Under the pieces are notes generated by a model. The model saw only the letters and a program-made list of their open reading frames with translations. It had not been told where the DNA came from and did not search any database. Shown in pieces: positions 14,318 through 56,304 of a DNA stretch of 56,304 nt (the stretch's first letter is position 1; each line of letters begins with the position of its first letter). The stretch comes from a virus (Duplodnaviria > Caudoviricetes). The translations under genes were made by a program, and so were the position numbers. The DNA lies in the IMG/VR virus record IMGVR_UViG_3300044815_000143, positions 1 to 56,304 of that record. One strand, given 5' to 3'.

Positions 14318-14470
14318 ATGAACGTCACCGAACAAGAGTTCAGAGAAGCCGTGGATGAAGCCTACGGTCTCGTTGAACCATATATCGTCGGGGCCAAGAA
14401 AGTTCCGATCCGTGTCGTCACCCTCCGGCGAATTGTCGAGGGCCTGAAACTTGGCTACAAGCTCCCATAG
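14318..14470 (+). CDS. Small hypothetical protein (50 aa) between the tRNAs
   Basis: AGGA RBS; MNVTEQEFREAVDEAYGLVEPY...GYKLP; stop codon lies inside the 5' end of tRNA-Arg(CCU). Confidence 0.55.
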   Translation: MNVTEQEFREAVDEAYGLVEPYIVGAKKVPIRVVTLRRIVEGLKLGYKLP

Positions 14471-14537
14471 CTCAGACGGATAGAGCGTTCGTTTCCTAAA
14501 CGAGAGGTCGCAGGTTCGAGTCCTGCTGGGGGCGCCA
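14461..14537 (+). tRNA. tRNA-Arg(CCU)
   Basis: Canonical cloverleaf GCTCCCA...TGGGGGC-G-CCA; anticodon loop TT-CCT-AA; GGTTCGAGTCC T-arm. Confidence 0.95.
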
Positions 14538-25803: not shown

Positions 25804-25970
25804 GTGTACGAAATTGGTATTTCTTGACTTCGGGCTCGACTTAAGGCTAAATAGAATTATACGCAGAGGGCTGATCCTCTCGTAACATTACATGGCGGAA
25901 ACTCACCATGGTCGAACGACCCCCGAAGGGGCGGCTCACTGCGCCGCTCATCAATCCCGAACCGGAGGTC

Positions 25971-27125: not shown

Positions 27126-27128
27126 TCC

Positions 27129-28487
27129 ATGGATTTCGCCAAGCGCGCTCATGACCACAACTTCCGCATGGACCCCATCGTGCGGAACCTGACCGACACC
27201 GACTTCTATAAGCCTCTGATGCAGCAGTTCCTGTGGCGGCGGTTTCCGGGCGTGAACTCCGTCTGGAAACAGAAGAACCGCACCACCGACGTTCCGCTGG
27301 CCGAGCAGGTCACCATCGAAGAACTGCGCGAGCAATTCGACCATGCCCGGACGCTCAAGCACACCAAGTCGGAACTGATCAACTACGCCGGTCAGACGTT
27401 CTCCGGCGTGACGGGCATCTTTCGGTCGGGTTACATCGACTTCCTTCGCACCTATCAACTACCAGAGTACAGCATCGAGCACGAACGGGCCTACAACGGC
27501 TCGGTCGGCTACAACACCGGGCAGTACGACATCCAGTATGCGGGCAAGCTGTGTGAAAGCACGGGCTGGGAAATTCCGAGCCTGACAATCACCAATGAAT
27601 TGCGCAACCGCCATCTCCTGCGCCAGCACACCAAGTCCGAACTCGACATCATGTACGCTCGGGCCAAGGTGAAGCTGTACGACAAGCTTCTGGCCCTGAC
27701 GGCGCCGGAACTCGAAGGCATCAGCGTCACCGAGTTCGGCACGCGTCGGCGGCACTCGTTCCTCTGGCAGGAATGGGTCGTCCAGACCATGGCCGAAGTG
27801 CTCGGAGTACGGTTCGGCGGCACGTCCAACGTCTATCTCGCCATGCAACATGGTCTGGAAGCGCGGGGCACGAACGCCCACGAACTGCCGATGGCCTACG
27901 CCGCGATGGCCGATGGTGACGAGGCCCTGAAGAACTCGCCGTACATGCTCGCCCGAGACTGGCAGGCCGATCATCCGGAAGCCCTGCGCATCATGCTGCC
28001 GGACACCTACGGGTCCACGAGCTACTTCGAAAACTCGCCTAGCTGGCTGTCGGACTGGGCGGGTTTCCGTCCTGACTCCAAGAAACCGATTCCGGCTATC
28101 GAGGAAGGCATTGCCTACTGGAAGCTTCACTCGCAGCCCGTGGCGGAAAAGCTGGTCATTCCCAATGACGGCCTCGACGTTCACTTGCCGCACCAAAAGG
28201 CGCACGGCGAGGACATCCCCACGATCTACCTGAAATTCAAGGGGCAAGTCCGACAATCGTTCGGCTGGGGAACGCTGGCCACCAACGACTTCCACGGCTG
28301 CTCGCCGAAGGGATACGACTTCATGAAGCCGATCAGCATCGTCTGCAAGCTGCAATCGGTCGATGGCAAGCCGTGCGTCAAGCTGTCGGACAACTACGAC
28401 AAGGCCATCGGCCCGCCGGAAGAGATCGCGCGCTACCACCGCGTGTTCGGAACCAAGGGCATGGTCGGCGCACCGGTGTTCGTCTGA
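27129..28487 (+). CDS. pncB: Nicotinate phosphoribosyltransferase
   Basis: DTDFYK, EFGTRRRHS, GTNAHE, PDTYG, RPDS, DGLDV, GWGT, VKLSDN. Confidence 0.92.
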   Translation: MDFAKRAHDHNFRMDPIVRNLTDTDFYKPLMQQFLWRRFPGVNSVWKQKNRTTDVPLAEQVTIEELREQFDHARTLKHTKSELINYAGQTFSGVTGIFRSGYIDFLRTYQLPEYSIEHERAYNGSVGYNTGQYDIQYAGKLCESTGWEIPSLTITNELRNRHLLRQHTKSELDIMYARAKVKLYDKLLALTAPELEGISVTEFGTRRRHSFLWQEWVVQTMAEVLGVRFGGTSNVYLAMQHGLEARGTNAHELPMAYAAMADGDEALKNSPYMLARDWQADHPEALRIMLPDTYGSTSYFENSPSWLSDWAGFRPDSKKPIPAIEEGIAYWKLHSQPVAEKLVIPNDGLDVHLPHQKAHGEDIPTIYLKFKGQVRQSFGWGTLATNDFHGCSPKGYDFMKPISIVCKLQSVDGKPCVKLSDNYDKAIGPPEEIARYHRVFGTKGMVGAPVFV

Positions 28488-28690
28488 TGCCCGCCAAACC
28501 CTCCATGCGGTTCGATTATGACCAGTCCGCATTGGTCGAACTGGTGATCGCCGATCTGAGGGCCAAGGGTTACGACCCCGAGCCCAATGAAATCAAGGTC
28601 AAGATTACCGACAGCAAGCAATACTACAGCCCGCTCGACGCGGGTGAGTCCGCTCGGATCGAGATCAGTTTCTCGACTCGTACCAGCTAA
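28487..28690 (+). CDS. Small hypothetical protein
   Basis: TGATG coupling to pncB. Confidence 0.6.
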   Translation: MPAKPSMRFDYDQSALVELVIADLRAKGYDPEPNEIKVKITDSKQYYSPLDAGESARIEISFSTRTS

Positions 28691-28740
28691 TTTCGTTGAC
28701 CAGAATTTAAACACAACTATCCTGCGAATAGGAGCCGACT

Positions 28741-29388
28741 ATGATCCAAATCCATAAAAAATCCGCGTTGATCGTTGTTGATCCGCAAATCGATTTCTGC
28801 CCCGATGGCGCGCTCGCCGTCGCCGGTGGTGACGAAATCATGCAGACCGTGAACGAACTGTCGTTTCATTTTCGCGGTGAGGGTGGCGTGATCGTCACCA
28901 CGCAGGACTGGCACCCGGCCGGACACAAATCGTTCGCCAGCGCACACGGCGTGGCGCCGTTCAGCATCGTTCAACTGTCATACGGTGATCAGGTTGCATG
29001 GCCGGACCACTGCCTGCAAGGCACGGAAGGCGCAGAATTCCACCCGGACGTGGAAGTCACCGTCCTGCGATCCCACGCGATTATCCGCAAGGGCATGAAC
29101 CGCGAACTCGACAGTTACTCGGCCCACTACGAGAACGATCAGATCACCCCGACCGGCCTGACCGGATACCTGCGCTCGCGTGGGGTCGAGGACGTGTACT
29201 ATTGTGGTCTGGCCCGCGATTTCTGCGTCGGGTTCTCGGCCCTCGACGGCGTGAAGGATGGCTTCAACACCCTTCTGATCGACGACGCGACGCGCTTCAT
29301 CGCTGACAAGTCCAATAACGATATGACCGAGAAACTGATCGCCGCTGGCGTGAAGTTCGTCGCCGCCACCGACATCACCAGCCTCTAA
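28741..29388 (+). CDS. pncA: Nicotinamidase
   Basis: VVDPQIDFCPDGALAV, QDWHP, WPDHC, RKG, DSYSA, GLARDFCV. Confidence 0.93.
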   Translation: MIQIHKKSALIVVDPQIDFCPDGALAVAGGDEIMQTVNELSFHFRGEGGVIVTTQDWHPAGHKSFASAHGVAPFSIVQLSYGDQVAWPDHCLQGTEGAEFHPDVEVTVLRSHAIIRKGMNRELDSYSAHYENDQITPTGLTGYLRSRGVEDVYYCGLARDFCVGFSALDGVKDGFNTLLIDDATRFIADKSNNDMTEKLIAAGVKFVAATDITSL

Positions 29389-29403
29389 ACCGGAACGCGC
29401 TCA

Positions 29404-30498
29404 GTGTTTTATCCCAACGCTCTCTTCATCGACGGCAAGGTCGCCCCCATCGAAAAGGCCTTTGGCCGAACTGATGAGCAACCGAACGTGGTTTTTCTCA
29501 AGACCAACACCGTCGATGAAGAACGCCGTAACAGCATCGCCGCGTGGTTGACCAACAACCAAGACAGTGGGGATTGCGTCTGGATCGCCGGATCGCGTTG
29601 GGGAGAGAGGGGAACCCCGCCATTCCTCGTCATGAACGACGGCGCGGCCTGCTGGAGCCAATATGCCTTCGATAATGTCGAACTGGCGGAAGCGTTCTCA
29701 GTGGACTTCAGCGACATTCTCGTCACGACGCGTGACTATGACTACACGCGTTTCGATGAACCGAGCACCGACGTTTTTCTGGGAGGCTCGCTCTGGGAAC
29801 GCACGGACAAGAAAGGCGTAAAATCCCAGTACTATCGTGCTGAAGGCGATATGTGGTTCTCGGACAGCCCCTATTCGATCATCAAGGACCGCCTCGGTCT
29901 TGACATCGAGCCGGGTAAAGTTCGGAACCTGCTGTCGTGGGCGGGCGGACGGTCGCTTGGTATCTTTTACTACCTGAGCACGGTCGCGGATGGTCAAGGG
30001 GCGGAAATCACTAACGAGATCGCCAACTTCATCCTCGGCCCGCTGGCAGGAAGCATGAAAGAACGCGATATCGGATACGTCAAGCGCAGCACAGTGCTCC
30101 ATGAAACGGCTCTGATCGAATTGGGGCGGGCCATGGCTCTGAACCTCGTCCCGTCCTCGGCGCGCAAGGAACTCTATCCGCTCCTGATCAAGCGTTACAA
30201 CACCGAGTTCTTCGAGCTTTTGGCCGTGACCATGGGCACGGTCGAAGAGGCGGCGCGCCTCGCGTTCTACAACATCCTCGCCGAAGTTCTGGAGCCTATT
30301 TTCTCACAGGCCGGGGGAGACGAGATCAACGCCATGATCAAGGCGGTTCTCGACGCGAATCCGACACAGGCCGCGCTCGTCGCTGCCAAGGACCAGAAGG
30401 TCATCGGTTGGGCCATGGGCCAAGTCATGAACGCGGCCAAGCCCACCAAACTCGATCCTGCGACCGTCCGCGCGGCGATCCTCAAGTACCAAGGTTAA
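29404..30498 (+). CDS. Hypothetical protein with C-terminal GatB/YqeY-like domain
   Basis: C-terminus IKAVLDANP...KVIGWAMGQVMNAAK..LDPATVRAAI. Confidence 0.65.
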   Translation: MFYPNALFIDGKVAPIEKAFGRTDEQPNVVFLKTNTVDEERRNSIAAWLTNNQDSGDCVWIAGSRWGERGTPPFLVMNDGAACWSQYAFDNVELAEAFSVDFSDILVTTRDYDYTRFDEPSTDVFLGGSLWERTDKKGVKSQYYRAEGDMWFSDSPYSIIKDRLGLDIEPGKVRNLLSWAGGRSLGIFYYLSTVADGQGAEITNEIANFILGPLAGSMKERDIGYVKRSTVLHETALIELGRAMALNLVPSSARKELYPLLIKRYNTEFFELLAVTMGTVEEAARLAFYNILAEVLEPIFSQAGGDEINAMIKAVLDANPTQAALVAAKDQKVIGWAMGQVMNAAKPTKLDPATVRAAILKYQG

Positions 30499-30502
30499 GA
30501 GT

Positions 30503-32212
30503 ATGAAGATCAAGATCGCCGTTGTGCAAATGAACCCGGTTGTCGGCGATTTGGCCGGGAACCTCAAAAAGATCATGGCCGAGTACGTCAAGGCGGCGGG
30601 AGCGGGCGCGAACATCGTCATCACGCCTGAAATGTCCCTGACCGGCTACCCGCTGGAAGACTTGGTCTTGCGTCACAGCTTCATGGACGCTGTCAGCCAA
30701 TTCACCAGTGAACTGATCACCCGCGTGATGCAGTCGGGGGAAGAAGCCACTCTGATCTTCGGGGCGCCCGCCAAGAGCCTCGACGGCGTGGGAGTGACCA
30801 ACACCGCCTACCTGTTCGATCCTCTGGATTCCAAGTCCGTGCGCTGGGTCATGAAGACCGAACTGCCCAACTACGGCGTGTTCGATGAGAAACGCATCTT
30901 CAAGCCGTCCGCCTACGAGAACAGCGCCTTCATGTGGCGGGGCTACCGTCTGGGCCTGATGGTCTGCGAGGATGCGTGGTTCCCGAAGGTCACCCAGCAA
31001 CTGGTGGAGACCGGGGCGACCTTTCTGATCGCCATCAACGGCTCGCCGTTCGAGGTCGGCAAGAACGTCGTCCGTCGTCAAATCATCGCCAACCGGATCA
31101 AGGAATCCGGCCTGCCGTTCCTCTACGCCAACCTCGTTGGTGGGCAGGACGAACTGGTGTTCGACGGAGGATCGTTCTTCTACGACGGTAAGACGATGCA
31201 GGAGGCGCCACACTTCGTTGAGGGAACTTTCTTCTTCGATGCCGAACTCGGCCCGAACACCAAGAAAATCACCCTCGACAACTATCCGACCGTTCAGCCG
31301 ACTGGTATCGGAGAAATCTATCAGGCCTGCACGCTGGGCCTGAAGGATTACCTGCGTAAGCAACGGTTCGGGAGCGTGGCGCTGGGCTACAGCGGCGGCG
31401 TGGACTCCGGTATCGTGGCGGCCATGGCCTGTGACGCGCTGGGCGCTGATCTGGTTCACCTCGTGCGCCTTCCGTCCAAGTTCTCGTCGGACGGTTCGCT
31501 GACCGACGCGGCCGAAGGCGCCAAGCGGCTGGGCGCGCCGATGCGGACCATCGCCATCGAGCCCATCGTGGATGCCCTGCGTCTGGCCTACCGTGATGCC
31601 GAATACAGCTATCGGGAAAACGAATGCGAACACCTGACCGGTGTCGCCGACGAAAACATCCAAGCCCGCGCTCGCGGCAACATCCTGATGGCCATCTCGA
31701 ACCAAGAGGGCCACATGATCCTGACCACCGGCAATAAATCGGAAGTCAGTGTCGGCTACAGCACCCTCTATGGCGACATGAGCGGTGGTTTCAACCCGAT
31801 CAAGGACTGCTACAAGACCACGGTCTGGGAACTCTGCCGCTGGCGCAATGGTCTTACACCGGATCAGGTGAAAGACCACGGCTTCCTTGGCCATGGGGGC
31901 TACGACGTGGTCCCGGAAGAGATCATCGTCAAGCCGCCGAGCGCCGAGCTTCGGGCGGATCAGAAAGACAGCGACAGCCTGCCGGAATATCCGGTGCTGG
32001 ACGCGATCCTGAAGGCGATGATCGAAGACGAGATGAGCGTTCATACCATCGTCGAGGAACTGAAACTCCGGTTGGACATCGTGCAGAAAATCCGTCGCTT
32101 GGTGGACAATGCGGAGTATAAGCGTCGGCAAGCGGCGCCGGGCGTGAAGATCACCAGCAAGATTCACGGCAAGGATCGTCGCTACCCCATCGTCAACCAC
32201 TGGAGGGGATGA
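30503..32212 (+). CDS. nadE: Glutamine-dependent NAD+ synthetase
   Basis: Nitrilase domain (PEMSLTGYPLED, LPNYGVFDEKR, CED) + SGGVDS, ENIQAR, GNKSE, YGD, PPSAEL, EYKRRQA. Confidence 0.95.
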   Translation: MKIKIAVVQMNPVVGDLAGNLKKIMAEYVKAAGAGANIVITPEMSLTGYPLEDLVLRHSFMDAVSQFTSELITRVMQSGEEATLIFGAPAKSLDGVGVTNTAYLFDPLDSKSVRWVMKTELPNYGVFDEKRIFKPSAYENSAFMWRGYRLGLMVCEDAWFPKVTQQLVETGATFLIAINGSPFEVGKNVVRRQIIANRIKESGLPFLYANLVGGQDELVFDGGSFFYDGKTMQEAPHFVEGTFFFDAELGPNTKKITLDNYPTVQPTGIGEIYQACTLGLKDYLRKQRFGSVALGYSGGVDSGIVAAMACDALGADLVHLVRLPSKFSSDGSLTDAAEGAKRLGAPMRTIAIEPIVDALRLAYRDAEYSYRENECEHLTGVADENIQARARGNILMAISNQEGHMILTTGNKSEVSVGYSTLYGDMSGGFNPIKDCYKTTVWELCRWRNGLTPDQVKDHGFLGHGGYDVVPEEIIVKPPSAELRADQKDSDSLPEYPVLDAILKAMIEDEMSVHTIVEELKLRLDIVQKIRRLVDNAEYKRRQAAPGVKITSKIHGKDRRYPIVNHWRG

Positions 32213-33544: not shown

Positions 33545-35176
<1,632 letters not shown>

Positions 35177-43457: not shown

Positions 43458-46400
43458 CTAACGCTTAAGCGGTCCTTCGAGGATCGTAAAGGCCAAGCTG
43501 CCAAACTTCCCATCGAACGTCTTGAAGCGTCCACCCGTGACATCGTCCGTGAACAGGACGATCTCCGGCTCAGAGACGCGTGGCGAGGTCGCCCAGTAAT
43601 ACCCACCGTCCGTGTACCGTGCCGACAAGGGCGGCTCACGCTTCCCGGTGGCGACCTCCCATGCCTTTACGGCCCTCGCGTCGCGCAGCGACAAGGTAGG
43701 GAAATCCGGATCGGCGCCAACATCCGTGAAATACCGGCGGGACCGTTCACACCGCTGACCATCGGCCGGGTGGATCGTGATCACCGGGTAACCGTTCTGC
43801 AAATCCATCAACATGGTCACTTGGCTGACGCGCAGGATTTCGGCAGCGTCCAGTTCCACGCCGGAGAAAGCGTTGTACAGCGGGATTGGCAGGATCAGAG
43901 CGACCTTGGTGTCGTAACCGGTCTTGATAGTCTTGGCCGCGCGTGCCTCTTCCAGTTGCTGGTTGACCAACGACGCGACCTTGCGGATGGCTCTCCAACG
44001 GCGAAACACACCTTCCCGATCAGGAAGGTACTGATTGTCCTTTGGCAATTGATCGCACAGTTCGTCGAGTTCCCGCATCGTCGGATCGGACTGCGGTTCA
44101 TAATGCCGATGAATATTATGATCCTTCGGCATGATCAAGATGCCGACATCGGCTCGCATCTGGACCATCACCTCATGCACCATGAACGGCATGATCGGCT
44201 GCAACCATGCCGTCAAAGCGGTGAAGATGGAATTCAGCACCGTGCGATAGGCCCGGCGGCCCACGGACTTCGGATCGTCGCAGTACAGAACGTCTTTGCG
44301 GATGTCGAAGAAGAATGCCGACAGATCGTTGATGCAAAACTCGTTCAGGATACGCACGATATCGCCGAACTCATAGCTCTGGTAAAGTTCGGTGATTTGG
44401 CCGGACAATTGGCCAAGCCGTTCGTGGATGAAACCCTCCAACTCCGGATACAGGGATGGCGAGACGCTTTCAACCGGCGTGAACCCGTCGAGGGCGCCCA
44501 TTAGATAGCGGAGCGTCAGGCGGAATTTCTTGTACACGTCCATGGTCGTGTCGAGCATCTTCGGGCCGCACCTGACATCGACCGTGTAATCACTCATGGC
44601 GACCCAGAGGCGCAGGACATCGGTCCCATGCTTCTCGACGATTTCCTGTGGGCTGATGACGTTGCCCACCGACTTGGACATCTTGCGGCCCTTGTCGTCG
44701 AGTGTGAAACCGTGCGTCAGAACGTTCTTGAACGGCATCCGGCCGGTGGCGGCGACCGTGCGCAGGATCGACGTGCCGAACCACCCGCGATGCTGGTCGG
44801 AGCCTTCGAGGTAGAGATCGACGTGAGCCTTGTCGATCAATTCCAGCGAGCATGACGAATCGAACCAAACATCCAGAACGTCGGTCACCTTCTGATATTG
44901 GCTCGGATCGACAGGTTCGTCTTCCAGCCAGTATTCCGTGGAATACTGCCACCACGCGTCGCCACCTTCCACCGACAGCACATCGAAGATGCGCTTCTGC
45001 AATGCGGGAGACATGTAGGTGCGGCCGGTGGGCTCATGGACGAACAACGCCAGCGGCGTTCCCCATACACGTTGACGGCTGATCAGCCAGTCGGGACGTG
45101 TTGCAAGGGCCGTTTCCAGACGGTTGCGGCTGCGCTCCGGCGCCATGGCGACATAGGTAAGGCCATTCGCCATATTTTCCTTCATGTCGCTGTCCACTCG
45201 CACGAACCACTGGGTGGTGTTGCGGAAGATCAGCGGCGCCTTGGACCGCCACGAGTGCGGGTAGGAATGGACCATGGTGTTGAACCCGGCCAGAGCGCCA
45301 GCCGCGTTCAGAGCGTCCATGACCTTCTTATTGGTCGGTTCGAATGTGTAAAGGTCAACGCCCTTGTTGTTGAACTTCGTCAGGACGTTCAGACTGCCGA
45401 ACAGGCCGACTTCGGGGAGGTAGGAACCCGCCGCGTCCACGACTTCGGGAACGTCGCCCATGTTGTGGGTCTGCCAGAGCGCATAGTCCTCGGGACCATG
45501 GCCGGGCGCGGTGTGAACGAAGCCCGTCCCGGTCTCGTCACGAACGTGCGAACCCTCCAACAACGGGATCGGCATGCTGTAGTAATCGTTCTGGGGCCAG
45601 AGCGGATGGATGAGGACCGCACCCGTGATGTGATTATTGTACGGCCCAAGGTCGATCATCGCGACGGGTGAACCCTTGGCGGCTTCGGCATTGATACGGT
45701 CGGCATAGGTCTTCGAGACCACGACGTAGTCGCCGGTGAAACCCTCTTGGTAAAGGTGATAATTGATGTCCGGGCTGAAAGCCACGGCGCGCGAGGCGGG
45801 GATCGTCCACGGGGTCGTGGTCCAGATCATCAAATGAACCGGTTCATCCTTAAGGAACAGGTTCTTGAACTTGTACTTGACCCAGATTTCCGTGGTCTTC
45901 ATGTCGAGATGATCGACCTCGGCATCGGCCAGAGCCGTCTGTTCGACCGTGCTCCACAGAAACGGCTTCGTGCCCCGATAGACGAGGCCCTTGTCATGCA
46001 GTTTGTGGAGTTCGCGCGCGATCTTCGCCTCGGACAGGAAATCCATGGTCGCATAGCGGCGGTCATAATCGGCCAGAACGCCGAGCGCCTTGAAGCCTTC
46101 CATCTGGCCAGCGAGTTGTTGCGTGGCGTACTCGCGGCACATGGCGCGGAACGACAGCAATGGCATGTCGGATTTGTTCACCCCGGCTTGCAGCAGATGC
46201 TTCTCGACTTGCTGTTCGATGGGAAGGCCATGGCAGTCCCAGCCCGGCCGGTAGTTGACTTCCTTGCCCATGCCGAGTTGCGAACGGACGACGAAATCCT
46301 TCAGGACTTTGTTCATCGCGTGGCCGATGTGGATATCGCCGTTTGCGTAGGGCGGGCCATCGTGCAGAACGAAGGCGTTTCCATTGTCCGAAGCCGTCAG

Positions 46401-46508
46401 GGAATACAGGCCCTTCCACGATTCCACGATACCGGCCTCGTCGAGCGGGCGCTGCATCGAAAAATCGGTTCGCGGGAGGAACACCGTATCCTTGAAATCG
46501 GTCGTCAT
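43458..46508 (-). CDS. ileS: Isoleucyl-tRNA synthetase
   Basis: LHDGPPYANGDIHIGH, GWDCHGLP, WTTTPWT, GTGFVH, DWLISRQR, EGSDQHRGWF, KMSKS. Confidence 0.95.
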   Translation of the reverse strand: MTTDFKDTVFLPRTDFSMQRPLDEAGIVESWKGLYSLTASDNGNAFVLHDGPPYANGDIHIGHAMNKVLKDFVVRSQLGMGKEVNYRPGWDCHGLPIEQQVEKHLLQAGVNKSDMPLLSFRAMCREYATQQLAGQMEGFKALGVLADYDRRYATMDFLSEAKIARELHKLHDKGLVYRGTKPFLWSTVEQTALADAEVDHLDMKTTEIWVKYKFKNLFLKDEPVHLMIWTTTPWTIPASRAVAFSPDINYHLYQEGFTGDYVVVSKTYADRINAEAAKGSPVAMIDLGPYNNHITGAVLIHPLWPQNDYYSMPIPLLEGSHVRDETGTGFVHTAPGHGPEDYALWQTHNMGDVPEVVDAAGSYLPEVGLFGSLNVLTKFNNKGVDLYTFEPTNKKVMDALNAAGALAGFNTMVHSYPHSWRSKAPLIFRNTTQWFVRVDSDMKENMANGLTYVAMAPERSRNRLETALATRPDWLISRQRVWGTPLALFVHEPTGRTYMSPALQKRIFDVLSVEGGDAWWQYSTEYWLEDEPVDPSQYQKVTDVLDVWFDSSCSLELIDKAHVDLYLEGSDQHRGWFGTSILRTVAATGRMPFKNVLTHGFTLDDKGRKMSKSVGNVISPQEIVEKHGTDVLRLWVAMSDYTVDVRCGPKMLDTTMDVYKKFRLTLRYLMGALDGFTPVESVSPSLYPELEGFIHERLGQLSGQITELYQSYEFGDIVRILNEFCINDLSAFFFDIRKDVLYCDDPKSVGRRAYRTVLNSIFTALTAWLQPIMPFMVHEVMVQMRADVGILIMPKDHNIHRHYEPQSDPTMRELDELCDQLPKDNQYLPDREGVFRRWRAIRKVASLVNQQLEEARAAKTIKTGYDTKVALILPIPLYNAFSGVELDAAEILRVSQVTMLMDLQNGYPVITIHPADGQRCERSRRYFTDVGADPDFPTLSLRDARAVKAWEVATGKREPPLSARYTDGGYYWATSPRVSEPEIVLFTDDVTGGRFKTFDGKFGSLAFTILEGPLKR

Positions 46509-46560: not shown

Positions 46561-47109
46561 TCAAGCCGTTTTGTCTTCGTCGTACTGCTCATGGAGGACC
46601 ATTTTGGTCAGAACCATGGCGGTGACGTATTCCTCGTAACTACCTAGAATCACTGGGTTTTTATTTTCCGGAATACCGAACCTGAGCAACCAAAACGCCA
46701 GCACGGTTGGGCATGCTTGGTTCTTGAAAATGTTCCCATCGCCACGATTGGCCCGGAACGTGACCATCTCGGTGTGGTATAGAGGAAGACTTAGTGAAGA
46801 AAAACTGCTCGGGTCTTCATGAGGGCGGCCGTAATGATCCGTCACTATCCTCTTTTTGGCGAGTTCATCTGGGGCTTTCAGAACAATTGTGGTGTTCCAC
46901 AGCTTTCCCTCGGAAAGCCGAAACGTGACGGATTTCTCCGTGGTCTTGAACATGGAGATCGTTATGCGCTTTCCAGCGATAGTATTGTGGAATGTTTTCC
47001 CATTTTTCTCACCAAAACACATCAACAAACGAACGTTCTCTCGGAAAACGTGGAATTCGTTGTCAGAAAGAAGGGCCATATGCAATTCGTTGTCGGAGAG
47101 AAGGGTCAT
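46561..47109 (-). CDS. Hypothetical protein (N-terminal LLSDNE tandem duplication)
   Basis: ATGA overlap; MTLLSDNELHMALLSDNEFHV. Confidence 0.65.
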   Translation of the reverse strand: MTLLSDNELHMALLSDNEFHVFRENVRLLMCFGEKNGKTFHNTIAGKRITISMFKTTEKSVTFRLSEGKLWNTTIVLKAPDELAKKRIVTDHYGRPHEDPSSFSSLSLPLYHTEMVTFRANRGDGNIFKNQACPTVLAFWLLRFGIPENKNPVILGSYEEYVTAMVLTKMVLHEQYDEDKTA

Positions 47110-47390
47110 ACGAGCAACCTCGCGAAAACCATCTGCACAGGGTCTTCGAACATGAACATGATGTCGTTGCCACCCTTGCCATAAAGGATATACGTCCACT
47201 CGCTGGTGATCGAATCACTCATGGCGATAGTAGCGATGGCGTGCCATTTTTCCATGATGTCGGCACGACGCACGACGAAATGCTCGCTGAAACGCTTTCG
47301 CGCCTCGGCGTTGGTCATCTTGAACCCGACGAAACTCGGGTTGGACAACAAGGCATCTCTGGCTGCTTGGCGGGCTTTGTCTTCGGTCAT
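47106..47390 (-). CDS. Hypothetical protein
   Basis: ATGA overlap; MTEDKARQAARD... Confidence 0.65.
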   Translation of the reverse strand: MTEDKARQAARDALLSNPSFVGFKMTNAEARKRFSEHFVVRRADIMEKWHAIATIAMSDSITSEWTYILYGKGGNDIMFMFEDPVQMVFARLLV

Positions 47391-47719
47391 ACCAGCATGG
47401 ACGGGGTCAGGCCCACCGTCGCGAAATCCCGTTCGAATTGGATTACGTCGGAGAAACGCTCGAACAGGACGAACGAATCGTTCGGGTTCCCCGTATCGAG
47501 CGAGACGGGAGGATGGTCGGCGTAGGGGAAAGAATTTCCCATGTAGAACTTGCCGTTCGTATTGTCGTTCAGCCAGTTGAACAATTCCATCTCGTAGACG
47601 ATGGATTCCAGACCCTTTCCGTTGGCCACGCCAATACGGAAACAATAGACACCCGCCTCAAAGCCCATGTAACGGGCCTTGATGTGATCGGTGTCCAAGT
47701 CGTAAGGGTTCTGAGCCAT
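47387..47719 (-). CDS. Hypothetical protein
   Basis: TTGACT...GCTATCGT promoter a few nt before ATG (leaderless-like). Confidence 0.7.
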   Translation of the reverse strand: MAQNPYDLDTDHIKARYMGFEAGVYCFRIGVANGKGLESIVYEMELFNWLNDNTNGKFYMGNSFPYADHPPVSLDTGNPNDSFVLFERFSDVIQFERDFATVGLTPSMLV

Positions 47720-47760
47720 AATCAAACGATAGCATATGCACAGGAGAAGTCAAGGTATTT

Positions 47761-48515
47761 AGAGGTGACACTGACGTGTCACCTCTGCTGATCACGGAAA
47801 CGAACTGCGCATTCGCTTGTCCGTTCCGCAATCAGCAGTCAAATCAATGAGAAACGAAAGCAATAAAAACGAATATGTCATACCCTAGATTATAGTCTCT
47901 TTCTCCCCCTCTCAAAATATACAAGTATGCGTAGCATTTTGGACGTAATGAAACGTAACCTTCATGCCACGACACCTGTGTATTTTGAGAGGGGGATTGT
48001 CTTACCCTGAGTCAGTAAGCCTTTTCGTAAGTCACTTGCTGCGTTTATAGCAGCGGCAGGCGGTCTCCCGAAGACCTGCTCGTCGCAACCCAATCCCGAC
48101 AGGTTCCACCCAATGGTCAGAGTTTGGGGTTTAGGGCTCAATTCCGCTTGCGCGGATTAAATTGGCCTTCCTTGCCTCTGAGGTGAACGTTTGTAAGTCA
48201 GACGGTTATGATCCCTCCGGAGAAGGATCAAGCTTGCATACTCGGCCCGAAAATGACCGGCATGCACAGAGAACTGTCAAATGATTCAAGACATAGTTCT
48301 CTTCTTGTTCAGTGCCTTTGTCGTAATCCATAAGGATTACAGTGGGAAGCCGTTGACATCCACCGCGCGCTTTTATGCACAGTCCGCGTGGAGCGTCCGT
48401 CCCGTGGTCGTTCTACCGCGTATCCGCCTAAACCCCGTTCGATGGGTAGTAAAGAAAGATTTCAACGCTTTGCGACGAGCATGGCCGCGAGTGATAATGC
48501 TCTGAACGAATATGA
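47761..48515. ncRNA. Large structured non-coding region (candidate long ncRNA or origin)
   Basis: Nested helices 48077-88/48470-81 (12 bp), 48126-35/48427-36 (10 bp), 48032-39/48487-94; 20-bp stem 47904-23/47977-96; many local hairpins. Confidence 0.55.
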
Positions 48516-48682
48516 GTCCCTGTATAGAATCCTTTTGTAATTTCTGTCAAATAGAGTCATGGGGTAGAAATGATTTATTAATTACCTTAAACGAAAAAGG
48601 CCGACAGAATAGATCAGACCCTTGTAAAATACCCCAAGTGATGGTATATTGTCATTATATGCAATTTTTGCGGGAGATCATC

Positions 48683-48925
48683 ATGCTCACGGCTAAGATT
48701 ACTTTTATGGTCCACGCCGACTTCATCGGTTTCGCGGCTGGTCATGAGATCGCCGTTGAGGCTGAGTTCACTAACATGGATCAGGTGATTATCTGGGTTG
48801 ACGGCATCAACGCCCAGTTCAAAGAATTGCCGTTCCACGTCGAAGAGGCAAAGATCGACGACCGAAATTTCTACAGCCCTGATCTTGGACCGATCATATC
48901 GGTATTCGGCCTCGTCGGATACTGA
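48683..48925 (+). CDS. Hypothetical protein
   Basis: GGGAG RBS before ATG 48683. Confidence 0.6.
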   Translation: MLTAKITFMVHADFIGFAAGHEIAVEAEFTNMDQVIIWVDGINAQFKELPFHVEEAKIDDRNFYSPDLGPIISVFGLVGY

Positions 48926-48967: not shown

Positions 48968-49624
48968 ATGTTGCACATCCGTAAATCCATCAACATCGTC
49001 GATTCGTACCAAAACGATATTGGTACACCAGATGCTGTTGAGCTTGAGACGAACATCAATCTCGACTTTGCCGGGTTCGAGAAAGAGAACGCGCAATTGA
49101 CGGCTCAGTACCATCTCTCCAAATGGTCGGCGACCGTGGCTCTGATCAAGCATTACTCGGCCGGTTCGAACATCAACAACGATTTGATCCGTGTTGGTGG
49201 TGATCCCGCCGAGTTGGGATACGTCGAGCAGAGGGAATACAACGCCTTGATCGGCCTTGGTGGTCGGGTTGAGTTGGCCGAGCCGCACCATGTCTACAGC
49301 GGCACGGGGACGTTTGATCCCCGCGACGTGACGGTTGAGGGAATTTTCAAGACCCCGGCCTTCATGAGTACGTCCCTAAGCATCAAGGTGGCTGTCAAGA
49401 CCACCAATTACCGCCGCAAGGAGGATGAGGACCATGTTCTCCATTTCACCCTCCCTGCTGGTTTCTCGGATGGTTTCTACATCGCTCCGTATTCTCATGA
49501 TCCTGAAGAACTCGAATTTCTAATTCTGGCGAACATTTCATTCAAGTATTTGGGAACGAAAATCGTTGATCTGGATGGCGTGACCAGACACTTCCATTCT
49601 TATCGACCATTGACTTCCGGGTAG
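48968..49624 (+). CDS. ADP-ribosyltransferase-like protein (VIP2/Alt-type)
   Basis: HYSAGSNINNDL, VYSG, FMSTSL, ELEFLIL; TAAATA 6 nt upstream. Confidence 0.7.
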   Translation: MLHIRKSINIVDSYQNDIGTPDAVELETNINLDFAGFEKENAQLTAQYHLSKWSATVALIKHYSAGSNINNDLIRVGGDPAELGYVEQREYNALIGLGGRVELAEPHHVYSGTGTFDPRDVTVEGIFKTPAFMSTSLSIKVAVKTTNYRRKEDEDHVLHFTLPAGFSDGFYIAPYSHDPEELEFLILANISFKYLGTKIVDLDGVTRHFHSYRPLTSG

Positions 49625-51324: not shown

Positions 51325-51545
51325 GGTTACTTCTCGTTGAGCTAGAATATCGTACAATCTCAGGCTAAGTTACGCAAGTAATTATGGCGCTTAAATGCCT
51401 ATATTTGCTATATTTAGTACATAGTTCTGATCAAAATCAAGTTGTTTTTCATAGACTTTTCTATTTTTCGGCCGCGCTAAATACGATGCGCGCTGTGGAC
51501 CGGAGAATTCACGGCGATATTTTTCGAGACATTTGGGGATACAAT

Positions 51546-54500
51546 ATGGGCATTAGATACGATGGCATGAAGCTTGTTTGGCTAAACCAAGCTGCCACCA
51601 GCCAATCACTGATCGACTGGGTCAGTCCTCCTTCGGGAGATGTTGGCTCGTTTATCGGTAGCAGTGAAGTTTTGGTTCCTGTCAAGGTTCGCGTCATCAA
51701 TGGCCCCGCTCCGACGTTCGTGCTTGATTCCGGCACGCTTCCGCCCGGTCTGGTCATCGACCCGTCCACGGGAACGATGTACGGCACGCTGGGTAATGCC
51801 AACGGAAACTATTCCTATACACTGAAGGCGACGAGCGGCGACGTTTCGGCGACCCGTCAATTCAGCGCCAACGTGTCGGTCAACTCGGCTCCGGTTTGGA
51901 GCACCCCGGCGGGACCGTTGGGCGAAGCGTTCGACAACACTTTGGTCGATATCCAACTGACCGCCGACGACCCTGAAGGTATGCCGGTGACCTATGCGGT
52001 CCTGACCGGTTCTTTGCCGCGTGGTCTGAAGCTCGACGGAATCACGGGCAAGCTGTCCGGCCGTCTGGGTTCGGTGTCGGACAACACTACCTATTTCTTC
52101 ACGATCCGCGCATCGGACGGTGGCCTCAACACCGACCGCGCTTTCTCCTACACCACGGTCTATAACGCGCCTCCGGTCTGGGTGACCCCGGACTACGTCA
52201 ATGGCGGCCCTCTGGGCGGCCCTGTGATCGAAAACAAGCCCTACATGACCACACTGGTCGCCACGGACGCTACGGGCGGTCTGGCGGTCACCTACACGCT
52301 TGTTGGCGGTTCCTTGCCGACTGGTCTCGTGCTGAACAGCGTCTCCGGTGTGATCGACGGAACGGCGCCGGGCGTTTCGCGCGATCTGGATTTCCCGTTC
52401 GAGGTTTCGGCCAGCGACGGTTTCAAGGCTACTGGCCGCACCTTCCGCATCGCCGTCAAGAAGAACGTTCCGCCGGTTTGGCAGTCGAGCGGCAAGATCG
52501 GTCAAGATTTCGGTGGCGTGGATGTCTCGTACACCGTGCTGGCCGTGGACCCGAACGGTGAGGTCGTCACGTACTCGGTCGCCAACGGTAGCCAACTGCC
52601 GGACGAAACTTTCACCCTCAACTCGACCACGGGCGTTCTCGCCGGTACGCTGCCGGACGTTTCCACCCTGACCGACTACAACTTCACGCTGGTAGCCACG
52701 GACGGAATCAACGACGCGTCGCGCGCCCTGAAGATCACGGCCCTGAAGAACGCCCCGCCGGTTTGGATCACGGGCACGGACCTCGGGAACGCTCTGGAGA
52801 GCACCGCGTATTCGCGCACCCTGACCGCCACGGACCAAACCGGTGCGGCTCGCACCGTGACTTACTCGTCTCTGTCTCCCCTGCCGTCTGGTCTGAACCT
52901 GTCGGGTACGGGCGTGCTCTCGGGTACTCTCCCGTCCGTCACGACGGACACCGGCTACACGATGACCATCCAAGCGGCCATCGGCGATCAGACCACCAAC
53001 CGAGACTTCATGCTGACGGTCGAGAACAACATCGATCCAACGTGGGTCACGCCGAGTGGCCTTCTGTTCAGCACGCTGGGCAAGACCAACATTTCCTTCC
53101 AACTGGTCGGCTCCGATCCGAACATGACTCCGGTCTCGTTCTCCCTGATTTCGGGAACTTTGCCGTCCGGCATTTCGCTGTCGGCTGGTGGACTGCTGTC
53201 GGGCGTGCTTCCGGACGTTGGCAACGCCACGACGTACAATTTCACGGTCGCTCTGAGCGACGGCGTGAACATGGTCAACGAAGCGTTCTCCATCGAAGTT
53301 CTCCGCAACCTCCTGCCGGTCTGGGACACGACCGCTGGATCGCTGGGGTCGGCGTTCGAGAGCATGCCGTTCACCGCGACGATTGCGGCGCATGACCCGG
53401 AAGGCCAGCAAGTCACCTACGTCCTCGCGGTCGGCAATGTCCTGCCGTATGGTCTGGCGCTTAACCCGTATTCCGGCACGATCACCGGCACGCTTCCGAG
53501 CGTTCCGAACGACACCACCACGAATTTCACGGTCTTGGCTGACGACGGTTCGTATAACATGACCGGCCGCGCCGGGCGTGCGTTCTCGATCACCACCAAG
53601 TTCAACTCGGCTCCGGTTTGGGCCACCCCGTCCAACCTCGGTACGCCGGTCGAAGGCCGCAATTTCTCCTACCAACTGGCCGCGACGGGCGTTGGTAACG
53701 GCCCGATGGTCTACACCTTGATCAGCGGCGCTCTGCCGACCGGTCTGACGCTGACGAAGGCTGGTATGATTTCTGGAACGCTCCCGGCATCTTCGGGCCT
53801 CGACGAGTATGATTTCACGATCAACGCCTTCAACGGCATCAAGGGCGCTGACCAAGCCTTCACGCTGAGCATTGCTCAGAACGTCGCTCCGGTTTGGAAC
53901 ACGGCCGCTGGTTCGCTGGGGAGTTTCTACTTCAACAACCCTGTCTCGGTTAACCTGAGCGCCACGGACCCGAACGGCACGGCGGTGACTTTCGCCGTTG
54001 TCAGCGGCGCCCTGCCCACGGGTCTGGTTCTGGTCAACGGTACGATCTACGGGACGTTGGCGACCCGCGTTCAGACGGACACCACCGCGTCCTTCACCAT
54101 CCGTGCCAGCGACGGCGTTCTGTCGTCAGATCGTGCATTCTCCATCACCACGTTCGCCGACTCCACACCATCGTGGGTCACGACTGCTGGCGAGATCGGC
54201 GCACCGATCAAGAACAAGCCGTTCTCGTTCACCCTGCACGCCACGGACCCTGAAAACGTTGCTCTGACCTACGTCATCATTTCGGGCAGTCTGCCGTCTG
54301 GTCTAGCTCTGAACTCGAACACGGGTGTGATCTCGGGAACGACTCCGAATGTCACGTCTGCTCAAACGAGCAACTTCACGGTTCGCACGTCTGATGGCGT
54401 TCACACCGCCGACCGCGCATTCTCTATCACAGTCAACACCGACTCCCCGCCGGGCTGGGTAACGCCCGCTGGTTCGCTGGGCTCGATCCTGTCGGGCTAT

Positions 54501-56304
54501 GCCGGTAGCTTCAGCTTCTCGGCGACCGACCCTGAAGGACTGCCGCTCACCTATGCGATGACCGCTGGTACCCTGCCGACGAACATGGCGTTCAACCCAA
54601 GCGGTGGCATTACCACGAATGTTGGTGAAACCACCGTGCTGTCTTACAGCAACAGCACCTATTCGTTCACGGTCGAAGTCTCGGACGGTAACACGTCGGT
54701 TCCGCGCATTTTCTCGATCACCGTTCTGGCCAACCAAGACCCGATCTGGAGCACGCCTGCTGGATCGTTCGGAACGTTCGATGAAGGCACGGTCATCTCC
54801 AACACCGTGGTCGCTACCGACCCCGAAGGCCTGTCGGTCCTGTACAGCATCACTAGCGGCGCCCTGCCGACTGGCCTGTCGTTCAACGGCACGTCGGGCG
54901 CGATCACGGGAACGATTGGCGCGGTCTCGACCGATACCAATTACAATTTCGAAGTTTCCGCCTTCGACGGCAAGCGCACGGTCGCCCGTTCGTTCGCCTA
55001 CACCGTTCGCTTCGCCTCCCCGCCTGCGTTCTCGACGGGAGCGAACCTCGGTTCGCAACTGGAACAGACCGTGTTCACGGCCAACATCGTGGCGACCGCC
55101 AACGGTCACCCGATCACTTACACGGCCAACACCGGTTCGACCCTGCCTCCGGGCCTGTCTCTGAACGCCAACACGGGCGTTCTCTCGGGTACGCTGGGCA
55201 CGGTCACGGGCGACACCGCCTACACCTTCACGCTGCGCGCGACCGACAACGTCACGACGAAGTTCTCGACCCGTCTGTTCTCGCTGACGGTTCTCCAGAA
55301 CCTCGCTCCGGTCTGGGTCACTCCGGCTGGAAGCCTGTTCAACAACCTCGCTGGCACGCCTTACTCGGTCACGGTTTCGGCCACGGACCCGAACGGCACG
55401 CCGGTCACCCTGTCGCTTGTCAGTGGAACCCTGCCGACTGGCGGTTCGTTCGATGCGAATACGGGCGTGATCTCCGGCAATCTTCCGACCGTTTCGAACA
55501 ACACCACCTACAGCTTCACGTTGGGTGCTTCGGATGGCGCGATCCGTACTGATCGCAATTTCTCGATCACCTCGCAGTACGATTCGGTTCCGGTCTGGAC
55601 CACCAATTCGGCTCTGGGTACGTACTCGGAAAGCCTGCCGTGGTCGTACCATTTCGTCGCCGTGGACCCGAACGGTCGTTCGGTGACTTACTCGCTGGCG
55701 AACTCGACGACATTGCCGGGAACGAGCCAACTGCTGTCGAACGGCTATGTCTACGGCACGTTGCCGTCTTCAGTTGGAACGACCACTCCGAGCTTCGATC
55801 TGGCTGCGACGGACGGTACGCAAATCGCTTATCGCACGTTCACGATGACGGTCAACGAGAACCAAGCTCCGGTTTGGGTCACCAACTCGGCTCTGGCCAA
55901 CGCAGTCGAAAATTCACAGTACCTCGTCACGCTGGTTGCTACCGACGCGGACGGCGATGTTCTCACCTATACGATGGTCAACAGCGCGGCGCTGCCGGGC
56001 AACATCACGCTGGCGACCAATGGTCAGGTAAGCGGCACGGCTCCGAACCTGAACGGCGATCTTCCGGTCACCTTTACTTCGCGCGTCACCGATGCTCGTG
56101 GCAAATGGGCTGAGCGTACCTTCACCTTCGTGGTGAAGAACGACACCAGTTACATGGACCCGTCGTCGGACAAGGTCACGTTCCTTGCCCACTTCGACAC
56201 CAACCCGGACCCATACTGGGCGAACGTCGCCGTTCTGTCGAACTTCGACGCGGGCCGTATCAACAACGTGACCGGCGCGACCATGAGCGCGGTTCAGGGA
56301 TCGG
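51546..56304 (+). CDS. Giant Ig-like repeat virion protein (about 16 He_PIG/cadherin-like repeats, then start of a LamG-like region; runs off right edge; absent from ORF track)
   Basis: MGIRYDGMKLVW...; roughly 90-aa units N.aPVW.T..G.LG...ATDP.G..vTY....G.LP.GL.L...TG.i.G.lP......y.FTv.AsDG.....R.F; ends DPYWANVAVLSNFD. Confidence 0.88.
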   Translation, partial: MGIRYDGMKLVWLNQAATSQSLIDWVSPPSGDVGSFIGSSEVLVPVKVRVINGPAPTFVLDSGTLPPGLVIDPSTGTMYGTLGNANGNYSYTLKATSGDVSATRQFSANVSVNSAPVWSTPAGPLGEAFDNTLVDIQLTADDPEGMPVTYAVLTGSLPRGLKLDGITGKLSGRLGSVSDNTTYFFTIRASDGGLNTDRAFSYTTVYNAPPVWVTPDYVNGGPLGGPVIENKPYMTTLVATDATGGLAVTYTLVGGSLPTGLVLNSVSGVIDGTAPGVSRDLDFPFEVSASDGFKATGRTFRIAVKKNVPPVWQSSGKIGQDFGGVDVSYTVLAVDPNGEVVTYSVANGSQLPDETFTLNSTTGVLAGTLPDVSTLTDYNFTLVATDGINDASRALKITALKNAPPVWITGTDLGNALESTAYSRTLTATDQTGAARTVTYSSLSPLPSGLNLSGTGVLSGTLPSVTTDTGYTMTIQAAIGDQTTNRDFMLTVENNIDPTWVTPSGLLFSTLGKTNISFQLVGSDPNMTPVSFSLISGTLPSGISLSAGGLLSGVLPDVGNATTYNFTVALSDGVNMVNEAFSIEVLRNLLPVWDTTAGSLGSAFESMPFTATIAAHDPEGQQVTYVLAVGNVLPYGLALNPYSGTITGTLPSVPNDTTTNFTVLADDGSYNMTGRAGRAFSITTKFNSAPVWATPSNLGTPVEGRNFSYQLAATGVGNGPMVYTLISGALPTGLTLTKAGMISGTLPASSGLDEYDFTINAFNGIKGADQAFTLSIAQNVAPVWNTAAGSLGSFYFNNPVSVNLSATDPNGTAVTFAVVSGALPTGLVLVNGTIYGTLATRVQTDTTASFTIRASDGVLSSDRAFSITTFADSTPSWVTTAGEIGAPIKNKPFSFTLHATDPENVALTYVIISGSLPSGLALNSNTGVISGTTPNVTSAQTSNFTVRTSDGVHTADRAFSITVNTDSPPGWVTPAGSLGSILSGYAGSFSFSATDPEGLPLTYAMTAGTLPTNMAFNPSGGITTNVGETTVLSYSNSTYSFTVEVSDGNTSVPRIFSITVLANQDPIWSTPAGSFGTFDEGTVISNTVVATDPEGLSVLYSITSGALPTGLSFNGTSGAITGTIGAVSTDTNYNFEVSAFDGKRTVARSFAYTVRFASPPAFSTGANLGSQLEQTVFTANIVATANGHPITYTANTGSTLPPGLSLNANTGVLSGTLGTVTGDTAYTFTLRATDNVTTKFSTRLFSLTVLQNLAPVWVTPAGSLFNNLAGTPYSVTVSATDPNGTPVTLSLVSGTLPTGGSFDANTGVISGNLPTVSNNTTYSFTLGASDGAIRTDRNFSITSQYDSVPVWTTNSALGTYSESLPWSYHFVAVDPNGRSVTYSLANSTTLPGTSQLLSNGYVYGTLPSSVGTTTPSFDLAATDGTQIAYRTFTMTVNENQAPVWVTNSALANAVENSQYLVTLVATDADGDVLTYTMVNSAALPGNITLATNGQVSGTAPNLNGDLPVTFTSRVTDARGKWAERTFTFVVKNDTSYMDPSSDKVTFLAHFDTNPDPYWANVAVLSNFDAGRINNVTGATMSAVQGS

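Follow-up and report, generated by a model that had tools for sequence, protein, structure and literature searches.

A candidate new family of large structured RNAs in huge phages, possibly linked to replication origins

The IMG/VR virus record IMGVR_UViG_3300044815_000143, a stretch of 56,304 bases that was analyzed over its whole length (hereafter the window), has a gap between two small genes at 47726-48682 that contains no credible open reading frame (ORF). Most of this gap is occupied by a self-contained non-coding element of about 670 nucleotides (nt; ~47883-48551), for which the best reading is a new family of large structured RNA, possibly linked to replication origins. CheckV estimates the window to be 10% complete, so that the whole phage genome should be about half a megabase in size. 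The two flanking genes lie outside the element and match no Pfam family:

47387-47719/47725, minus strand: gene for a protein of 110/112 amino acids (aa)
48683-48925, plus strand: gene for a protein of 80 aa

The promoter-like sites of these genes (minus strand, 47753-47726; plus strand, 48601-48650) are also outside the conserved element. No ORF spans the gap when TAG is read as Q, TGA as W or TAA as Q, and the ORFs inside the gap have scores between -0.25 and -0.44 per codon, whereas the flanking genes reach +0.22 to +0.36. A hidden gene in an alternative genetic code is ruled out by these recoded-stop ORFs and negative codon scores, and the starting point of the original prediction of a large non-coding RNA, a gap without a convincing ORF, is upheld even with reassigned stops. 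The same prediction had proposed a comparison of folding energy with dinucleotide shuffles. The predicted fold of 48020-48500 is better than all 100 shuffles on each strand (z = -3.0 on plus and -4.0 on minus).

The two flanking proteins and a third neighbor, used as queries against IMG/VR, returned no close relative. With IleRS as the query, one relative was identified, a complete 578,292-base record with terminal repeats (G001; 47% protein identity). The terminal repeat of G001 is only 127 bases long, suggesting that it is no true terminal repeat but an overlap left by the assembler on a genome that is circular or circularly permuted. When the gap DNA is compared with G001, a syntenic copy (G1a) matches window positions 48005-48560 (556 nt, 73% identity, E = 3.6e-77) and a second, weaker copy (G1b) is found about 320 kb away from it; both matches also share a short box at window positions 47880-47913. 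The element is better conserved than its coding neighbors, given its 73% identity at the DNA level against protein identities of 50% for the 110-aa protein and its syntenic G001 counterpart and 47% for IleRS. A covariance model (R1), built on the 5′ half of three copies from hand-checked helices only, recovered two further full-length and far more diverged copies in G001 (E = 2e-43 and 6e-40). The R1 scores of the four full-length G001 copies are 401.7, 341.1, 141.3 and 130.6 bits, the first two belonging to copies that were used to build the model, and R1 found no second copy in the window. The four copies in G001 are:

97 kb, minus strand: G1c, found with covariance model R1
218 kb, minus strand: G1a, syntenic with the window copy
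389.5 kb, plus strand: G1d, found with covariance model R1
539 kb, plus strand: G1b, the second DNA match

Measured from the left to the right end box, the unit is 667 nt long in the window and 659, 610, 616 and 617 nt long in the other copies. G1a and G1b show 75% identity across just 209 nt, and G1c and G1d can be aligned only piecewise; judged by such comparisons, the G001 paralogs are old and long diverged. Sequence-pattern scans of IMG/VR detected no copy beyond G001. A metagenome scan returned nine stretches, all of them 21-29-nt chance matches without other motifs of the element, and a scan of GTDB genome contigs returned five, none of which has blastn similarity to the element; GenBank phages gave no blastn match either. 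Near relatives at about 88-98% identity are present among Logan contigs from groundwater, freshwater and wetland metagenomes. The contigs of runs X3, X5 and X6 cover the stretch in part, and the parts that they do not cover are uninformative.

The element is composed of the following parts, listed without strand in window coordinates:

47761-47786: 10-bp hairpin rich in G+C, about 97 nt to the left of the left box
47883-47910: left box, CCCTAGATT-ATA-GTCTCTTTCTCCCCCT, the pyrimidine run of which is the left arm of P0
47904-47996: terminal hairpin P0, stem 47904-23/47977-96, 20 bp in the window
48005-48012: linker C[CA]TGAGT, invariant, joining P0 to the core
48032-37/48489-94 and 48079-88/48470-79: two closing long-range helices, enclosing the core
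48038-42/48050-54: H1, 3-4 covarying pairs
48056-58/77-79 and 48062-66/72-76: H2, one A-U to U-A compensation in G1c and G1d
48098-100/197-199 and 48103-110/182-188: H5, covarying, in the branched domain 48098-48199
48118-22/176-80: H6, covarying, in the branched domain
48135-43/160-67: H7, covarying, in the branched domain
48144-47/152-55: H8, covarying, in the branched domain
48199-48210: invariant single-stranded motif CAGACGGTTATG, with ACGGTTATG identical in the five copies
48209-14/225-30: H9, 2 pairs changed on both sides
48235-45/257-66: H10, 6-9 pairs changed on both sides
48268-78/290-302: H11, 5 pairs changed on both sides, loop GTCAAAT...AGAC conserved
48323-29/334-40: H12, 3-6 pairs changed on both sides
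48341-48469: variable right domain, with H14 (48344-47/400-03), H13 (48359-67/385-92) and H15 (48406-08/415-17)
48510-48551: right box, ATATGAGTCCCTGTATAGAATC, N13, TGTCAAA, in which ATAGAATC-N13-[TA]GTCAAA takes up 48524-48551

The core of about 460 nt has at least 12 helices kept by compensatory changes. Its left domain (48038-48340) is well defined and consists of H1, H2, H9 to H12 and the branched H5-H8 module. The helices of the right domain are well supported between the window and G1a only, and analysis of the five copies of this domain by MAFFT and RNAalifold gave almost no structure on either strand.

Collecting homologs and testing for covariation had been suggested together with the original prediction, and the outcome is clear. 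We took 66 pairs in 12 helices from the fold of the window itself and examined them in a plain MAFFT alignment of three copies that was fitted to no structure. It is evident that the pairing is maintained, with 97.4% of the cells paired and both sides changed in 26 of the 66 pairs. None of 500 column shuffles reaches the observed value of any of five measures, and 2-9 such pairs are left when the partners are slid by 1-3 columns. The five-copy alignment was fitted to the covariance model and is hence biased towards structure; here 94.6% of the cells are paired and 40 of 63 pairs (61 cells) have changed on both sides, a level that is again reached by 0 of 500 shuffles (5-9 pairs in the slid controls). 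Ten of the 11 helices in the five copies have at least one pair changed on both sides together with at least three other pairs that are fixed or covarying, and the eleventh, H12, is partly misaligned in G1b. Contigs of run X2, which represent a near relative in another metagenome, carry double compensatory changes at 48119/48179, 48145/48154 and 48146/48153, and changes in the loops of H11 and H12. Uncompensated changes are found in the same run at 48132, at 48181 and around 48404-48418, which make H15 and a proposed helix 48126-35/48427-36 doubtful. We are highly confident that the element is a real, selected and folded single-stranded nucleic acid, almost certainly RNA.

All of the pairings first read from the window are present in it, and most of them are supported by covariation. 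The hairpins at 48209-30, 48268-302 and 48323-40 are present and backed by covariation, the 20-bp stem 47904-23/47977-96 is kept in all five copies despite their different sequences, and the 10-bp stem at 47761-86 has a strong hairpin at the equivalent place in each copy. Of the three nested long-range helices in the original prediction, 48032-39/48487-94 is present with 8 bp including one G-U, but positions 48038-39 are better placed in the covarying hairpin 48038-42/48050-54. The pairing 48077-88/48470-81 has covariation support and 12 Watson-Crick pairs in the window, but in other copies it was found only through a register search and with G-U pairs. The 10 bp of 48126-35/48427-36 exist in the window but are not conserved in the paralogs, besides the uncompensated change at 48132 in run X2.

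The ends of the element are conserved in sequence. The core of the left box, C[CA]TAGATTTA, is invariant in the five copies and is followed by a pyrimidine run; a 16-mer from this box occurs once in the window and, with up to two mismatches, only at G1a and G1b in G001. P0 has 22-45 predicted pairs across the copies, with polypyrimidine and polypurine arms that covary and a hypervariable tip. At the other end, ATAGAATC-N13-[TA]GTC[AG]A is present in all five copies. The right box also occurs once in the window, and the 19-mer used to search for it is found in G001 (up to two mismatches) at G1a and G1b only. All ten end boxes contain TAGAWT, in one orientation throughout, and ATAGAATC and CTAGATT are both found a single time in the 56-kb window. 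Confined as they are to the ends of the element, the box sequences are not general promoters. The invariant single-stranded motifs of the element include ACGGTTATG, GTCAAA and C[CA]TGAGT. In every copy, the left box has a strong G+C-rich hairpin to its left, at a distance of about 40-120 nt, which in the window and G1a is immediately followed by the promoter of the apparently leaderless 110/112-aa gene; the hairpin at 47761-47786 is probably the boundary or terminator side of the element. In the window, a perfect 10-nt direct repeat, AACGAATATG, is located at 47868-77 and 48505-14, the right repeat falling inside the conserved right box. Within the element, an 11-nt direct repeat, TT[CT]GTAAGTCA, is found at 48024-48034 and 48190-48200, the second adjoining CAGACGGTTATG, and may be due to chance.

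The original prediction left the strand of the transcript open, and plus and minus still have roughly even odds after comparison of folding energies, G-U and A-C cells, promoters and gene orientations. On the side of minus, P0 is about 10 kcal/mol more stable on this strand in four of the five copies, includes 17 G-U pairs among 179 predicted on minus versus 7 among 162 on plus, and forms a near-perfect helix only on minus in G1c and G1d. H10 has 4-6 A-C cells, which become G-U when read on minus. In every copy, the minus-strand sequence of the right box is TTGACA/TCGACA/TTGACT-N18-TAT, with a -35-like element TTGACA (three copies), TCGACA or TTGACT and a -10-like element TATACA (three copies), TATCGT or TATTGT on either side of the N18 spacer. 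The TTGACA...CTATAC site that had been noticed in the window is present at 48550-48522, with its geometry kept in all five copies; it lacks the final T of TAnnnT and is not listed by the promoter scan tool. The left G+C hairpin could be explained as a stop for the minus transcript in all five copies. On the side of plus, H9, H13 and a closing helix have G-U pairs on this strand, and the core fold is better on plus by 15-29 kcal/mol in G1a, G1c and G1d, although worse by 11 in the window. The -10-like TAGAWT is invariant at both ends (TAGAAT in the right box of the window), and in all five copies the next gene past the right box runs in the plus sense of the element, starting about 10-170 nt after the box. 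In G1c and G1d the distance from the box to this gene is no more than about 40 nt, so plus-strand transcription must begin in or pass through the right end. Other comparisons do not decide between the strands, including the counts of G-U versus A-C cells (8 vs 6 in the 5′ domain; 12 vs 7 and 24 vs 15 in other counts), the consensus-helix energy (-252 vs -247 kcal/mol between the strands) and the minimum free energy of the whole region, which did not separate the strands. The MAFFT alignment of the reverse complements is not a mirror image, with 15 non-Watson-Crick cells. It is possible that both strands are transcribed.

At the gathering threshold, a Rfam 15 search of the whole window matched only a tRNA at 14461-14534. 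The families covered include GOLLD, ROOL, OLE, HEARO, raiA, RNase P, tmRNA, group I and II introns, 6S, plasmid RNAI and riboswitches. When E values as high as 10 are admitted for 47600-48800, the only matches are to miRNA-type hairpins on P0, far under the cut-offs, and likewise only sub-threshold miRNA-type hairpin matches were found at the four loci in G001, where E was allowed up to 1. ARAGORN, run for tRNA and tmRNA including permuted forms, detected none in the element and only a tRNA-Arg(CCT) at 14461-14537 in the window. Short motifs resembling RNase P, group II domain V and a B12 box were picked out by eye and rejected for wrong motif order or for want of a Rfam match. The original statement that RNase P, tmRNA and introns are not recognizable therefore agrees with the covariance-model searches that it had called for, in which no family matches any of the five copies. 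By these comparisons, the element belongs to no described RNA family. The main text of an IMG/VR survey of structured RNAs, with 8,495 candidates from viruses (PMC10690425), is silent on huge and jumbo phages. Literature searches turned up no such RNA from huge phages, although the supplementary lists of this survey could contain the motif.

The genes that flank the copies are diverse. They encode IleRS, an ADP-ribosyltransferase-like protein, topoisomerase II subunits, an Smr protein and a protein with a weak RNase H-fold match, as well as DnaJ, ClpB, a deformylase, a nuclease, an outer-membrane beta-barrel and DHFR. We found no gene family common to the flanks of different copies, and the idea of a gene association was dropped on this ground. 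G1c adjoins genes for GyrB-like and GyrA-like topoisomerase II subunits and an Smr-domain gene (G001 90816-94739 and 97696-98220); the neighbor of G1c with the RNase H-superfamily match has E = 8e-4, below the cut-off. Complementarity of any copy to other places in G001 does not exceed 15-19 nt, which is at chance level, and a guide-RNA role was dropped accordingly.

The positions of the copies in G001 show a pattern. On a circle of 578,165 bp, the four gaps between them are 120.8, 171.5, 149.6 and 136.3 kb, and a minimum gap this large is rarely obtained with four random points (P = 0.0045, analytic and by simulation). Two of the four copies are exactly at divergent switches of gene orientation, one is a single gene off and one is inside a co-directional run. 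With the effect of gene strand removed by regression, the AT skew at third codon positions (AT3) falls from left to right at all four copies (by -0.023, -0.108, -0.033 and -0.039; Mann-Whitney P = 0.0009 overall, rotation null P = 0.003, four random positions P = 0.0002). The G+T excess is higher on the right of all four (rotation P = 0.012). The AT3 and G+T polarity has the sign expected of departing forks, which is suggestive only. The fitted skew coefficient is extreme at zero offset, and three of nine origin-like local maxima in the genome, at 216, 388 and 540 kb, lie at most 2 kb from the copies at 218, 389.5 and 539 kb.

It is very probable that the element gives rise to a folded transcript of about 650-750 nt and that this RNA is itself the functional product. 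Conservation of its DNA above that of the neighboring proteins, heavy covariation and the lack of a Rfam match all agree with a large structured RNA of the GOLLD/ROOL size class, as originally proposed. If minus is the transcribed strand, the RNA would start at the TTGACA-N18-TAT site and carry P0 and then the G+C hairpin at its 3′ side; if plus, it would start at the left TAGATT box and have P0 at its 5′ end. Because the paralogs are old and evenly placed and have been retained in differing contexts, a role tied to the locus is favored, and the lack of a common flanking family among such old paralogs argues for non-redundant, locus-tied roles. We tentatively favor the reading that every copy functions where it lies, as an RNA linked to a replication origin, and consider it plausible rather than probable. 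The structured transcript could prime or license DNA replication through an RNA-DNA hybrid, like ColE1 RNA II or the T4 origin transcripts, which would provide four evenly spaced start sites for a half-megabase genome; the G5/C5 runs of P0 and a possible transcript from the opposite strand might be the hybrid-forming and control parts. In its complete form, an RNA-based multi-origin system in which each of four evenly spaced origins of a half-megabase phage is defined by its own ~670-nt RNA paralog that primes or licenses initiation, this reading is unlikely.

Several observations weigh against an origin-linked role. GC skew is usually the clearest replication signal, but the GC skew at third positions (GC3) has a rotation P of 0.18 and the wrong sign at one of the four copies. 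The structured origin, which the original prediction had offered as its alternative, gains some indirect support from even spacing and from AT-skew flips of origin-like polarity, but none from the GC skew that had been suggested there as a check. The AT-skew effect is driven by G1a (P = 0.001, versus 0.18-0.40 for the others), and G1c has no local AT-skew maximum. The 622 G001 genes on which these values depend come from a crude, self-written codon-score caller, and the spacing and skew tests were devised after the positions of the copies had been seen. Genes are co-oriented with the inferred forks in 55.5% of cases, against 50.3 ± 7.4% under the null. At the copies themselves, no iterons were found, only two families of 10-11-nt two-copy repeats, and no A+T-rich unwinding stretch is consistent among copies (33% G+C after the right box in the window, not consistently elsewhere). 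The next gene is within about 40 nt of the right box in G1c and G1d. Furthermore, a primer RNA is not obviously in need of more than 12 covarying helices, and none of the listed sequencing runs that contain the stretch is on record as RNA.

Comparison with known systems gives partial likenesses. The ColE1 primer RNA II, about 550 nt in length, is structured, and its fold determines whether it forms a hybrid with DNA and primes replication; one of its ends is covered by the short antisense RNA I. Similarly, the element has runs of G and of C, and its P0 is selected on the opposite strand from some of the core helices. The two are unlike in that they share no homology, the Rfam plasmid RNA families do not match the element, its replicon is a 0.5-Mb phage with four copies, and its link with replication consists of spacing and AT skew only. 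At oriF and oriG of phage T4, the origin transcript stays annealed and primes the leading strand (PMC3016281). T4 thus resembles G001 in having several transcript-using origins in a large phage genome, whereas its layout of a promoter plus an unwinding element was not found at the element. T4 origin transcripts are not known to require an elaborate conserved fold. GOLLD, ROOL and OLE, like the element, are about 600 nt or longer, have many covarying helices, are encoded by phages or prophages and are without known biochemical function. They differ from it in that their Rfam models match neither its sequence nor its structure, and in its four diverged copies per genome, its TAGAWT end boxes and its polypyrimidine/polypurine terminal hairpin. 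RNAs of the GOLLD/ROOL/OLE type are reported to form homo-oligomeric complexes (PMC12286853).

An RNA of this kind could also leave its locus and act in trans, as a scaffold, a multimeric particle or a ribozyme, as is suspected for GOLLD and ROOL, with the paralogs as specialized variants and the even spacing as a product of chance or of recombination avoidance. Its size, its covarying helices, the motifs ACGGTTATG, GTCAAA and C[CA]TGAGT and the phage setting all resemble the large ornate RNAs, the element is independent of any neighboring gene family, and GC skew carries no origin signal. We nevertheless regard a trans-acting role as possible but somewhat doubtful: even spacing (P = 0.0045) and skew polarity would be left unexplained, complementarity elsewhere in G001 stays at the chance level of 15-19 nt, and four long-diverged paralogs per genome are, as far as we know, unusual for such RNAs. 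Diverged paralogs within one phage genome are familiar from a different class. The put RNAs of HK022 are cis-acting folded RNAs at the heads of operons, and the two put sites are diverged and structurally conserved, as are the copies of the element. A plus-sense leader or promoter cassette in or just upstream of the mRNA of the downstream operon, modifying its transcription, stability or processing as put does, with TAGAWT as phage-specific promoters or processing sites, would fit the co-orientation of the gene beyond the right box with plus in all five copies and the invariant -10-like TAGAWT in all ten end boxes. This seems quite unlikely to us, since the downstream genes are unrelated between copies, separate promoter-like sites lie between the element and its gene in the window, P0 pairs better on minus, and ATAGAATC and CTAGATT do not behave as general promoters. 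At 670 nt, the element is also about ten times larger than put and other known antitermination leaders, and the read-through of terminators on which these depend is not demonstrable for it.

Two further explanations have much lower probability. The end boxes are similar and directly oriented, the window copy has the perfect 10-nt direct repeat AACGAATATG and the copies are found in unrelated contexts, all of which would be expected of a selfish or mobile non-coding insertion that has direct repeats at its ends and a structure serving its own spread or maintenance. Such an insertion is very unlikely, as the copies are old and diverged with compensatory changes, which is not the mark of a recent burst, no transposase, integrase or reverse transcriptase adjoins any of them, the window copy and G1a are syntenic across a deep divergence, and the right AACGAATATG repeat belongs to the conserved right box. 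It is highly improbable that the product is not RNA at all, that is, that the pairings act in single-stranded DNA or that the conservation reflects protein-binding DNA only. The near balance of G-U-type and A-C-type mismatches between strands (8 vs 6 in the 5′ domain) and of consensus-structure energies (-252 vs -247 kcal/mol) would be consistent with DNA, but a multi-branched arrangement of over 12 helices, maintained by compensatory changes, is the hallmark of a single strand that folds, and P0 has a clear strand preference of the kind typical of RNA.

We know of very few classes of bacterial or phage RNA above 500 nt with a conserved complex fold, and each such class known to us (RNase P, group I and II introns, tmRNA, OLE, GOLLD and ROOL) has turned out to be biochemically remarkable. 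The element, from little-explored huge phages of soil and groundwater, shows covariation that is unusually clean for only five sequences, and four old, evenly spaced paralogs per genome are not known to have been described for any other large non-coding RNA, none having been met in literature searches. If the position-linked reading is true, the element bears on the replication or organization of such large phage genomes; should this reading fail, the element would remain well suited to cryo-electron microscopy and ribozyme screening.

The remaining genes of the window encode a tail-fiber chaperone domain, giant proteins with He_PIG and Ig repeats, IleRS, MetRS and NAD-salvage enzymes, besides the single tRNA. 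IleRS is full-length (43458-46508, minus strand), MetRS is at 33545-35176 (plus strand) and the tRNA-Arg(CCT) at 14461-14537 is on the plus strand. The NAD-salvage cluster (25908-32212) consists of a NUDIX plus cytidylyltransferase domain protein, a nicotinate phosphoribosyltransferase and a glutamine-dependent NAD synthase. The 110-aa gene to the left of the element is apparently leaderless in both phages (window 47719-47753; L016 3418-3461), with a TTGACT/TTGACG-N16-TATCGT/TACACA site that ends about 7-9 nt upstream of its ATG in both. Further left, two minus-strand ORFs overlap, at 46561-47199 and 47106-47645, and the codon score of each is slightly below zero; the former nevertheless has a 29%-identical homolog in G001, and the gene model at 46561-47645 could possibly represent a frameshift or a short real gene. 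To the right, a 218-aa protein (48968-49624, plus strand) has a borderline match to ADP-ribosyltransferase (PF03496; 23.3 bits against a cut-off of 23.4) and 54.5% identity to G001 214995-215759. A giant repeat protein at 51384-56303 (plus strand, open at the end of the window) exceeds 1,640 aa and has 15 He_PIG domains, and its counterpart in the relative (G001 202836-213611, minus strand) has 3,591 aa with He_PIG and Laminin_G repeats. Both giant proteins are probably adhesins or fibers.

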